DNA of 64,000 nt from NCBI RefSeq assembly GCF_044647545.1, contig NZ_CP172818.1; one strand, 5' to 3'. Origin of the DNA: Escherichia coli (GTDB taxonomy: Bacteria > Pseudomonadota > Gammaproteobacteria > Enterobacterales > Enterobacteriaceae). Made by a program: the position numbers and the translations under genes. Below are positions 28,119-37,017 of this stretch, one piece after another; the first letter of the stretch is position 1; each line of letters opens with the position of its first letter. A model generated the notes under the pieces. It saw only the letters and a program-made list of their open reading frames with translations. It was not told the origin of the DNA and did not search any database.

Positions 28119-28934
28119 TTACCAGCCTTTAACAGCGCCGCCGTTAAACACTTTGTTTGCTGCTTCGTAAACTTCGTCAGACTGATAAGCCTGAACGAAT
28201 TTCTTCACGTTTTCGGCGTCTTTGTTGTCTTCACGCGTTACGATCAGGTTTACGTACGGGGACTCTTTATCTTCGACAAAGATACCGTCTTTCGCTGGAG
28301 TCAGGCCAATCTGGCTGGCATAGGTGGTATTGATAACTGCCAGAGCGATTTGCGCGTCGTCCAGAGAGCGCGGCAGCTGCGGTGCTTCCAGTTCAACAAT
28401 TTTCAGATTTTTTGGGTTCTCAACAACATCAAGAACGGTCGGCAGCAGGCCAACGCCATCTTTCAGTTTGATCAAGCCCACTTTTTGCAGCAGCAGCAGT
28501 GAACGACCAAGGTTAGTTGGGTCGTTTGGCACGGCAACCTGCGAACCATCCTGCAGTTCATCCAGTGATTTGATTTTCTTGGAGTAACCTGCAATCGGAT
28601 AAACAAAAGTGTTGCCTACTGCGACCAGTTTGTAGCCACGATCTTTCAGTTGCTGATCAAGGTACGGTTTATGCTGGAAGGCGTTGGCGTCGATATCGCC
28701 TTTGCTCAATGCTTCGTTTGGCAGAACATAGTCGTTGAAGGTTACCAGCTCAACGTCCAGGCCATATTTGTCTTTCGCAACTTTCTGCGCGACTTCTGCA
28801 ACCTGCTGTTCGGCACCAACAATCACGCCGACTTTAATGTGGTTTGGATCTTTTTCATCCTGACCGCAGCCTACCAGTGCCAGTGATCCAATCAGGGCTC
28901 CCACTGCCGCAAAGGTTTTGAATTTGAACGCCAT
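28119..28934 (-). CDS. metQ: D-methionine ABC transporter substrate-binding lipoprotein
   Basis: 271-aa ORF; lipobox LVGC. Confidence 0.95.
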   Translation of the reverse strand: MAFKFKTFAAVGALIGSLALVGCGQDEKDPNHIKVGVIVGAEQQVAEVAQKVAKDKYGLDVELVTFNDYVLPNEALSKGDIDANAFQHKPYLDQQLKDRGYKLVAVGNTFVYPIAGYSKKIKSLDELQDGSQVAVPNDPTNLGRSLLLLQKVGLIKLKDGVGLLPTVLDVVENPKNLKIVELEAPQLPRSLDDAQIALAVINTTYASQIGLTPAKDGIFVEDKESPYVNLIVTREDNKDAENVKKFVQAYQSDEVYEAANKVFNGGAVKGW

Positions 28935-28973
28935 ACCTTATTCCTTCTTCAATTATTTATGTTGTGTTGAACG

Positions 28974-29627
28974 TTACTTGCGAGTGACAGCCCGGACGAT
29001 GCGGTCGCCTGCGAACTGAATTAAATAAACCAGAATGACCAGCAATACCAGTACCGTATTCATCACCGTCGCGTTGTAGCCGATGTAGCCATACTGATAG
29101 CCAATCTGACCTAAACCACCGGCACCGACTGCACCACCCATCGCGGAATAACCGACCAGGGTAATCAGGGTGATAGTCGCAGCATTCACCAGACCCGGCA
29201 ATGCTTCCGGTAACAGCACTTTACGGACGATCTGCATCGGCGTGGCACCCATTGCGCGGGAAGCTTCAATTAACCCGGTTGGGATCTCCAGCAGAGCGTT
29301 CTCGACCATACGGGCAATAAACGGTGCTGCACCAACGGTTAACGGAACAATCGCTGCCTGCAAACCAATCGATGTACCGACAATAACTCGGGTAAACGGA
29401 ATCATCCATACCAGCAAGATAATGAACGGGATAGAACGGAAAATGTTCACAATCGCAGAAACGGTACGATACAGCTTCGCGTTAGCAATAATTTGCCCCG
29501 GACGCGTGACATAAAGCAGGACGCCAACCGGCAGACCAATCACAAACCCAAAAAATCCGGATACGAAGGTCATTGCCAGCGTTTCCCATACGCCACGAAC
29601 CAGCAGCCACATCATCGGCTCAGACAT
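28974..29627 (-). CDS. metI: D-methionine ABC transporter permease
   Basis: 217-aa hydrophobic ORF. Confidence 0.95.
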
Positions 29628-30651
29628 AACCCAGTACCTCTACTTTTACATGGTGTTCCTGCAGCCAGGCAATGGCGGCTTGCGTATCTTGTTGTGTACC
29701 GTGCATTTCAGTCAGCATGATGCCGAACTTAACGCCACCGGCGTAATCCATCTGCGCACTAATAATGTTGTTGTTGACGTTGAAACGACGCGCGGTTTCA
29801 GAAAGCAGCGGGGCATCAACCGATTGACCGGTAAACTCCAGACGCAGCATTGGCACGCAGTCAGCGAATGGTTCCGCTTGCAGACGTTCTTGATAATCTT
29901 CCGGGATATCCAGATGCAGGGTCGACTGAATAAACTTCTGCGCCAGCGGCGTTTTCGGATGCGAGAACACTTCACTTACCGTGTCCTGCTCGATCAACTC
30001 GCCATTACTGATCACCGCCACGCAATCACAAATGCGCTTCACAACGTCCATTTCGTGGGTGATCAACAGAATCGTCAAACCCAGACGACGATTGATGTCT
30101 TTCAGCAGTTCGAGAATAGAACGTGTCGTTGCCGGGTCCAGCGCGCTGGTGGCTTCATCACACAGCAATACTTTGGGATTGCTGGCTAATGCACGGGCAA
30201 TCGCCACACGTTGTTTCTGCCCACCGGAAAGATTCGACGGGTAGCTATCATGCTTATCGCCAAGACCAACCAATGACAGCAATTCCGTCACGCGACGTTT
30301 GATCTCGTCTTTCGGTGTGTTGTCCAGCTCCAGCGGCAGAGCAACGTTGCCAAAAACAGTACGCGAAGAGAGCAGGTTAAAATGCTGGAAAATCATACCA
30401 ATCTGGCGACGAGCTTTGGTCAACTCGGATTCTGACAGCGTGGTCAGTTCCTGGCCATCGACCAGCACGCTACCCTCGGTTGGGCGCTCCAGCAGGTTTA
30501 CACAACGTATAAGCGTACTCTTACCCGCGCCTGAGGCACCGATAACGCCATAAATTTGTCCAGCTGGCACATGCAGGCTGACGTTGTTCAACGCCTGGAT
30601 GGTGCGGGTGCCCTGGTGGAACACTTTGGTGATATTCGAAAGTTTTATCAT
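29620..30651 (-). CDS. metN: D-methionine ABC transporter ATPase
   Basis: 343-aa ORF; Walker [13 protein letters not shown] signature LSGGQKQR. Confidence 0.95.
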
Positions 30652-30741
30652 TGATTATTTATTATCGTCATTAAGTTAGTCGTGGCATTTCGAATGCCTG
30701 GAACGGGCAACGCCGTCAATGAAATGGATGTTAAGGCATCC

Positions 30742-30757
30742 AGACGTCTAAATCAAT
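30742..30757 (-). promoter_or_regulatory. MetJ operator (tandem met boxes) upstream of metN
   Basis: AGACGTCT followed by AAATCAAT, matching the AGACGTCT met-box consensus. Confidence 0.6.
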
Positions 30758-30838
30758 CAGGTTTATGCGAAGAGCACTTTCTTGCAGGTCGAAACATGCG
30801 ATACTAGCGTCACATGCCTTATTAAGGAGCTATAAAAG

Positions 30839-31411
30839 GTGGCGAAGAGCGTACCCGCAATTTTTCTTGACCGTGATGGCACCATTAATGTCGATCACGG
30901 CTATGTCCATGAGATCGACAACTTTGAATTTATCGACGGTGTTATTGACGCCATGCGCGAGCTAAAAAAAATGGGCTTTGCGCTGGTGGTAGTAACCAAC
31001 CAGTCTGGCATTGCTCGCGGTAAATTTACTGAAGCACAGTTTGAAACGCTGACCGAGTGGATGGACTGGTCGCTGGCGGACCGCGATGTCGATCTGGATG
31101 GTATCTATTATTGCCCGCATCATCCGCAGGGTAGTGTTGAAGAGTTTCGCCAGGTCTGCGACTGCCGCAAACCACATCCGGGGATGCTTTTATCGGCACG
31201 CGATTATTTGCATATTGATATGGCCGCTTCTTATATGGTGGGCGATAAATTAGAAGATATGCAGGCAGCGGCTGCGGCGAACGTGGGAACAAAAGTGCTG
31301 GTGCGTACGGGTAAACCTGTTACGCCTGAAGCAGAAAACGCGGCGGATTGGGTGTTAAATAGCCTGGCAGACCTGCCGCAAGCGATAAAAAAGCAGCAAA
31401 AACCGGCGTAA
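30839..31411 (+). CDS. gmhB: D,D-heptose 1,7-bisphosphate phosphatase (GTG start)
   Basis: 190-aa ORF; HAD motif FLDRDGTIN. Confidence 0.9.
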
Positions 31412-31776: not shown

Positions 31777-33318
<1,542 letters not shown>

Positions 33319-33386
33319 CCTTAAAGAAGCGTACTTTGCAGTGCTCACACAGATTGTCTGATGAAAATGAGCAGTAAAACCTCTAC

Positions 33387-33463
<77 letters not shown>

Positions 33464-33505
33464 AATTTGCACCGCAAATTTGAAGAGGTTTTAACTACAT
33501 GTTAT

Positions 33506-33581
33506 GGGGCTATAGCTCAGCTGGGAGAGCGCCTGCTTTGCACGCAGGAGGTCTGCGGTTCGATCCCGCATAGCTCCACCA
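33506..33581 (+). tRNA. alaV: tRNA-Ala (TGC)
   Basis: GGGGCTATAGCTCAGCTGGG...CTCCACCA, 76 nt. Confidence 0.95.
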
Positions 33582-33765
33582 TCTCTGTAGTGATTAAATA
33601 AAAAATACTTCAGAGTGTACCTGCAAAGGTTCACTGCGAAGTTTTGCTCTTTAAAAATCTGGATCAAGCTGAAAATTGAAACACTGAATAGCCGAAAGTT
33701 ATTCGTGAGTCTCTCAAATTTTCGCAACACGATGATGAATCGAAAGAAACATCTTCGGGTTGTGA

Positions 33766-36669
<2,904 letters not shown>

Positions 36670-36768
36670 ACAACGCCGAAGGTGTTTTGGCGGAAGAGAC
36701 ATCGACAAGTAAGCTTGATACAGATTAAATCGACAGGTCAGAACAGGACGTGTTGATAAAACAGAATT

Positions 36769-36888
36769 TGCCTGGCGGCCGTAGCGCGGTGGTCCCACCT
36801 GACCCCATGCCGAACTCAGAAGTGAAACGCCGTAGCGCCGATGGTAGTGTGGGGTCTCCCCATGCGAGAGTAGGGAACTGCCAGGCAT
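36769..36888 (+). rRNA. rrfH: 5S ribosomal RNA
   Basis: TGCCTGGCGGCCGTAGCGCGG ... AACTGCCAGGCAT; 120 nt. Confidence 0.97.
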
Positions 36889-36940
36889 CAAATTAAGCAG
36901 TAAGCCGGTCATAAAACCGGTGGTTGTAAAAGAATTCGGT

Positions 36941-37017
36941 GGAGCGGTAGTTCAGTCGGTTAGAATACCTGCCTGTCACGCAGGGGGTCGCGGGTTCGAG
37001 TCCCGTCCGTTCCGCCA
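36941..37017 (+). tRNA. aspU: tRNA-Asp (GTC)
   Basis: GGAGCGGTAGTTCAGTCGGTTAGAATACC...TCCGCCA, 77 nt, distal to 5S. Confidence 0.95.

Follow-up and report, generated by a model that had tools for sequence, protein, structure and literature searches.

The MetJ operator of the metNIQ promoter in a non-K-12 Escherichia coli strain: three head-to-tail met boxes between metN and gmhB

Introduction

The methionine repressor MetJ binds as ribbon-helix-helix dimers, one dimer per met box, with cooperativity between dimers and S-adenosylmethionine (SAM) as the co-repressor. The metN operator of Escherichia coli was reportedly first noted in 2002, in the metD papers of Merlin et al. and Gal et al. The closest described system to the locus studied here is the K-12 metN (metD/abc) operator of Augustus & Spicer (2011, BMC Genomics 12:558), whose Table S1 (PMC3228920) lists for b0199/metN the site agacgtctggatgccttaacatcc, with 3 boxes, 20.45 bits, and a position 74 nt before the start codon. 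The operators of metA, metB/metJ, metC, metE/metR, metF, metK, and mmuP likewise consist of tandem unspaced 8-bp repeats of the AGACGTCT type. According to the published table, these E. coli MetJ operators contain 2–4 boxes, and, like the metN site, they are located near or overlap the promoter and confer SAM-dependent repression. The metN operator serves a transporter operon, whereas metA, metB/metJ and the other operators are compared here as biosynthetic ones. MetJ itself is distributed among the Enterobacterales, Pasteurellales, Vibrionales, Aeromonadales, and Alteromonadales (PMC3228920, PMC4239095), and metNIQ is included in the conserved core MetJ regulon.

A second precedent concerns divergent gene pairs. 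The metC/exbB region resembles metN/gmhB in that a MetJ operator lies between two divergent genes and regulation is confined to the met gene. The non-regulation of exbB was measured directly, whereas that of gmhB is deduced from the promoter geometry and from its absence from the list of genes changed in a metJ deletion. In this study, the box array, its significance, and its lineage-limited conservation were computed, while the transcription start position and in vivo repression by MetJ are taken from published experiments.

Results

Organization of the metN/gmhB locus

The window (the whole 64-kb stretch of DNA analysed here) is from a non-K-12 E. coli strain. A segment of 701 bases around the metN/gmhB site has exact (100%) matches in many E. 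coli chromosomes; of 5426 complete genomes of the species, 5424 contain it, annotated as metN and gmhB. According to the ORF list and the RefSeq annotation, metN (29620–30651), metI (28974–29627), and metQ (28119–28934) are encoded on the minus strand and constitute the regulated operon metN-metI-metQ (28119–30651), all three genes of which are derepressed in a metJ deletion. On the plus strand, the gmhB ORF (30839–31411) begins with GTG. With the metN start at 30651 and the gmhB start at 30839, the interval 30652–30838 is the exact 187-bp divergent intergenic region, as the first-pass annotation of this DNA had described it.

The gene order in K-12 MG1655 is proS, trmO, rcsF, metQ, metI, and metN on one strand, with gmhB and rrsH on the opposite strand; K-12 coordinates are obtained by adding 191994 to those of the window. 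Two bases of the intergenic region, 30689 and 30701, are not the same as in K-12, and neither lies in the operator or the promoter. The divergent metN/gmhB arrangement is old, and the Enterobacterales, Vibrionaceae, Orbaceae, and Pasteurellaceae have it in common. On the far side of gmhB, the rrnH operon (16S, tRNAs, 23S, 5S, tRNA; 31777–37014, plus strand) starts approximately 370 bp past the gene, and an Rfam match to StyR-44 is located at 33649–33758, immediately upstream of the 23S gene. Most of the draft Enterobacterales contigs in our comparative set (loci L002–L021) stop 0.8–1.4 kb upstream of metN, as would be expected if assemblies break at the rRNA operon.

A single three-box MetJ operator in the window

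Octamers were scored with the published MetJ information matrix (Augustus & Spicer 2011), which was built from 832 half-boxes. The published definition of an operator requires at least two directly adjacent 8-bp boxes resembling AGACGTCT, each scoring at least a quarter of the consensus score (3.1 bits) and together scoring at least the consensus score (12.58 bits). The first-pass annotation had proposed that tandem met boxes place metNIQ under methionine-repressor control, and had suggested a MetJ motif scan and a comparison with the characterised metN promoter as checks. The scan returned one threshold-passing operator in the whole 64-kb window, at 30726–30749. Read on the metN strand (30749 to 30726), it consists of three tandem 8-bp boxes, AGACGTCT GGATGCCT TAACATCC. 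Box 1 (30742–30749) is the perfect consensus and scores 12.58 bits; box 2 (30734–30741; AGGCATCC on the plus strand) and box 3 (30726–30733; GGATGTTA on the plus strand) are individually weak, with 4.22 and 3.63 bits, respectively. Each box thus passes the per-box threshold, and the sum of 20.43 bits exceeds the total threshold.

The significance resides in the array. Although the AGACGTCT copy at 30742–30749 is the only perfect one in the window, a lone perfect octamer is not significant (0.59 copies expected; at least one copy in 50 of 100 shuffles). When the whole window was shuffled 500 times with its dinucleotides preserved, one shuffle gave a site of at least 20.43 bits, and about 6e-6 such sites are expected in the 187-bp region. 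The comparison with the characterised site was equally clear, in that the 24-bp operator of the window is letter for letter the b0199/metN entry of Table S1 in PMC3228920. The locus, sequence, box number, score, and 74-nt distance are the same as in K-12; nothing of substance differs, and the site is the same element in a non-K-12 strain. We therefore identify it, with a probability of about 0.95, as the known MetJ operator of the E. coli metNIQ (metD) promoter, composed of three head-to-tail boxes. The dyad of boxes 2 and 3 can also be drawn as a terminator-like hairpin (TGGATGCCTTAACATCCA, 30742 to 30725, minus strand). Transcription from the metN promoter begins downstream of this hairpin, which therefore does not enter the transcript and is no terminator.

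MetJ-dependent expression of metNIQ

Published experiments show that MetJ represses the downstream gene in vivo. A fusion of the 400-bp metN upstream region to lacZ gave a repression ratio of 0.05 (wild type versus metJ deletion), corresponding to 20-fold repression by MetJ. RNA-seq of a metJ deletion gave log2 fold changes of 3.98 for metN, 3.80 for metI, and 3.61 for metQ (PMC12977542 Table S1), so that the published derepression of metN is about 16-fold. The absence of MetJ-dependent regulation of metN had been named in advance as the observation that would refute an operator here; both the fusion and the RNA-seq data show the dependence, and with the identical published site they bear out the proposed repressor control of the transporter operon. 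Our literature search gave no relevant result on a named metN promoter or on a MetJ ChIP-exo study. A gel-shift panel has been published (PMC3228920, Figure S1), and the search turned up no footprint of the metN operator.

The operator occupies the spacer and −10 hexamer of the metN promoter

The alignment of Enterobacterales sequences predicted a promoter with TTGATT, a 17-bp spacer, TAACAT, and transcription beginning near 30720. A metN transcription start at K-12 222714 (minus strand; 83 reads, 69-nt UTR) was reported by Kim et al. 2012 (Table S1), and the sequence upstream of it is identical in the window. The start is an A at 30720, which gives a 69-nt 5′ UTR from 30720 to 30652. Relative to this published start, the −10 hexamer TAACAT (30728–30733) occupies −13 to −8, and the hexamer TTGATT (30751–30756), located 17 bp upstream of TAACAT at −36 to −31, is assigned as the −35 from its position. 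The pair matches the consensus at 8 of 12 positions, and a simple promoter scan did not list it because this match is below the cutoff. K. pneumoniae metN has the same promoter layout. The −35 hexamer reads TTGACT in Yersinia, Pectobacterium, Photorhabdus, Hafnia, and Acerihabitans; its TTG is invariant in the 19 species aligned, as are five of the six positions of TAACAT, the sixth (30731) being 95% conserved.

Boxes 1, 2, and 3 lie at −29 to −22, −21 to −14, and −13 to −6, respectively, and the first six bases of box 3 are the −10 hexamer. Since the metN start is at 30720 and the boxes span −29 to −6, the operator fills the promoter spacer and the −10 hexamer, and thus overlaps the promoter of a methionine-related gene. 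In this respect the metN site is unlike the other E. coli operators listed above, as one perfect and two weak boxes double as spacer and −10. The promoter geometry points to repression by steric occlusion of RNA polymerase.

Several further signals were considered in the leader. A promoter offered by the scanner, ATGCCA-16-GATAAT (30688 to 30661, minus strand), is unsupported by the published start and is kept only in the closest Enterobacteriaceae, and it was rejected. The idea that the 69-nt 5′ UTR holds a conserved RNA structure, for example of the riboswitch kind, was likewise rejected (z-score −0.84, a 4-bp stem only, no compensatory changes), and an Rfam scan of the whole window found no RNA family in the metN/gmhB intergenic region. 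A block of the UTR, GGCAnnnGAAAATGCCACGGCTAAC (30675–30698, minus strand), is conserved in the Enterobacteriaceae and not in Yersinia, Pectobacterium, or Photorhabdus; only a 4-bp stem without compensatory changes is possible in it, and the K-12 difference at 30689 falls in its loop. The metN gene has no recognisable Shine-Dalgarno sequence, and the 20 nt before its ATG are A/U-rich (GACGATAATAAATAATCA; region 30652–30672, minus strand), with the GATAATAAATAA part conserved across the Enterobacteriaceae, which suggests an unstructured, A/U-rich translation initiation region. Kim et al. 2012 also listed a weaker internal start (14 reads) at K-12 221629 (window 29635, minus strand), at the 3′ end of metN and 8 nt upstream of metI, suggesting that some metIQ transcription is independent of the MetJ-controlled promoter. 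A weak plus-strand Cappable-seq start (score 2.0) at K-12 222667 (window 30673) is antisense to the metN 5′ UTR and may represent pervasive low-level initiation.

Conservation of the operator follows the distribution of MetJ

We compared 80 metN loci, one genome per species with MetN, and applied the same matrix to the 400 bp in front of each metN gene. A threshold-passing operator was present at all 21 loci of the Enterobacterales, in the same orientation and 61–103 nt from the ATG. Among the other MetJ-bearing lineages, it was found at 15 of 17 loci: Vibrionales (10/11), Orbaceae, Psychromonas, a gammaproteobacterial MAG, and Aeromonas (4/4), and Pasteurellaceae (1/2). None of the 42 loci of Bacteroidota, Halomonadaceae and relatives, Firmicutes, and one alphaproteobacterium had an operator in the 400 bp scanned. 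As MetJ is confined to five gammaproteobacterial orders, these 42 loci serve as a natural negative control. Two loci, L035 (Rodentibacter) and L053 (Salinivibrio), belong to MetJ-bearing orders, yet have no threshold-passing array within 400 bp of metN; the missing operator at the Rodentibacter locus agrees with the reported operator loss in the Pasteurellales.

The MetN proteins of the Bacteroidota (Pedobacter, Flavobacterium, and others; L023, L034, L037, L039–L041, L043, L045, and L046) show 62–72% identity to E. coli MetN. They are closer to it than the gammaproteobacterial homologs from Halomonadaceae, which are only 55–59% identical, and this hints at inter-phylum transfer of metNIQ. Met boxes are absent from the 400 bp upstream of metN at all of those Bacteroidota loci.

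The 19 Enterobacterales metN/gmhB intergenic regions were aligned, and conservation was expressed as mean identity to the E. coli base. The 31 bp from 30756 to 30726 form a conserved block with sharp edges, with 57–61% identity in the flanks (mean identity 0.61 upstream, 30838–30758; 0.57 downstream, 30725–30652). Mean identities within the boxes are 0.96 (box 1), 0.89 (box 2), and 0.99 (box 3). The substitutions between species, A/C at position 3 of box 1 and G/A and T/C at positions 1 and 4 of box 2, are all tolerated or preferred by the MetJ matrix. The conservation of box 3 cannot be separated from that of the −10 hexamer it contains. The terminal CC of this box (30727–30726), outside the hexamer, is invariant in 19/19 species.

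The octamer upstream of box 1

The octamer adjoining box 1 on the side away from metN (AAATCAAT on the plus strand at 30750–30757; ATTGATTT on the metN strand) scores −9.93 bits, matches 3 of 8 consensus positions, and falls short of a quarter of the consensus score. Position 6 is an A, which corresponds to a T at position 3 of the opposite strand, and this base has zero occurrences there in the 832 half-boxes. At −37 to −30, it contains the −35 hexamer TTGATT, whose sole variable position changes from T to C (TTGACT), toward TTGACA and not toward the met-box consensus. The octamer is the metN −35 region and not a MetJ site.

The alternative that survives best is a four-dimer operator, in which a fourth MetJ dimer would sit cooperatively on the degenerate ATTGATTT (30757 to 30750) and cover the −35. 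The established cooperativity of MetJ lets poor boxes be occupied beside good ones, the 3′ half ATTT of the octamer sums to +3.05 bits on the published matrix, and T30750, the T of the T/A step where the boxes join, does not vary among the 19 species even though it belongs to neither the −35 hexamer nor box 1. Set against this, the 5′ half ATTG scores about −13 bits, leaving the whole box far below the 3.1-bit threshold, and the published annotation has three boxes. We consider a fourth dimer unlikely. A fourth dimer at 30750–30757 over the −35 combined with a subtle coupling of gmhB, a gene of the LPS heptose pathway, to methionine/SAM status is a slightly less likely proposal again; neither element has been reported.

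The gmhB promoter lies outside the MetJ-controlled unit

On the plus strand, a second block (30792–30806, CATGCGATACTA) is conserved with 0.91 identity in the 19 Enterobacterales and contains the extended −10 TGcGATACT (30797–30805). The gmhB transcription start determined by Cappable-seq (K-12 222806, score 31.4) corresponds to 30812, seven bases downstream of the hexamer, and it gives a 27-nt leader with an AAGGAG Shine-Dalgarno sequence at 30824–30829. The block at 30792–30812 therefore appears to be the gmhB promoter, outside the MetJ-controlled unit. The metN and gmhB starts are 92 bp apart and point in opposite directions.

The location of gmhB on the common intergenic region, noted in the first-pass annotation, is correct, but sharing the region does not make gmhB a MetJ target. 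A bidirectional operator, through which MetJ would control gmhB as well as metN, has in its favor the common 187-bp region and the retention of the arrangement across the four families and orders named above (Enterobacterales, Vibrionaceae, Orbaceae, and Pasteurellaceae). However, gmhB has a promoter of its own with a conserved extended −10, and the operator is outside its core promoter because it lies at −86 to −63 from the gmhB start. Furthermore, gmhB is found neither in the set of 38 genes that change when metJ is deleted (PMC12977542 Table S1) nor in the published met-box table, and our literature search gave no relevant link between MetJ and gmhB. The MetJ-bound region of metC, next to which exbB is unregulated in vivo, provides a precedent. 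Control of gmhB through this operator is accordingly improbable, more so than a fourth dimer.

Direction of the array and the plain-promoter reading

The first-pass annotation had placed the tandem boxes at 30742–30757, that is, as a two-box operator of AGACGTCT and AAATCAAT extending away from metN. Its perfect AGACGTCT at 30742–30749 stands, whereas AAATCAAT at 30750–30757 does not, and the second repeat was sought on the wrong side: the true partners are AGGCATCC (30734–30741) and GGATGTTA (30726–30733), toward metN. In favor of that reading, the two octamers abut in register and AAATCAAT shows high conservation, with 0.93 identity. This conservation is accounted for by the −35 hexamer, TTGAyT across species, at −36 to −31; the strongly negative score, the base never seen in a half-box, and the direction of the T-to-C change argue in the same sense, and the published site takes the other two octamers. 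A two-box operator on this side is highly improbable. Least credible of all, to the point of being negligible, is that the conserved block is a plain promoter with an incidental met-box resemblance: hexamers do lie inside or beside it, but its spacer, a part not normally conserved in promoters, holds a perfect box and a second box at 0.89–0.96 identity, the CC beyond the −10 is invariant, the array is found only in MetJ-bearing lineages, and MetJ-dependent expression has been shown experimentally.

Discussion

The three-box element between metN and gmhB has been described before. It is a genuine operator of an ordinary kind, with strong statistical support, conservation across related lineages, and experimental validation.

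We propose the following scheme for its action. When methionine is plentiful, SAM would accumulate and serve as the co-repressor. Three MetJ dimers, a number read from the boxes in the DNA, would then bind one per box, with cooperativity between neighbours. Bound MetJ would keep RNA polymerase off the −10 and spacer DNA, so that transcription of the methionine ABC importer is turned off. When methionine and SAM drop, MetJ would leave the operator and metNIQ would be transcribed.

The value of the present analysis lies in the correct annotation of the region: three boxes toward metN, a −35 region at 30750–30757, and a separate gmhB promoter without MetJ control. The metN operator, with its repressor sites embedded in the promoter spacer and the −10, is a textbook example of such an arrangement, and it is how E. 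coli and its relatives turn off their high-affinity methionine importer when SAM is plentiful.
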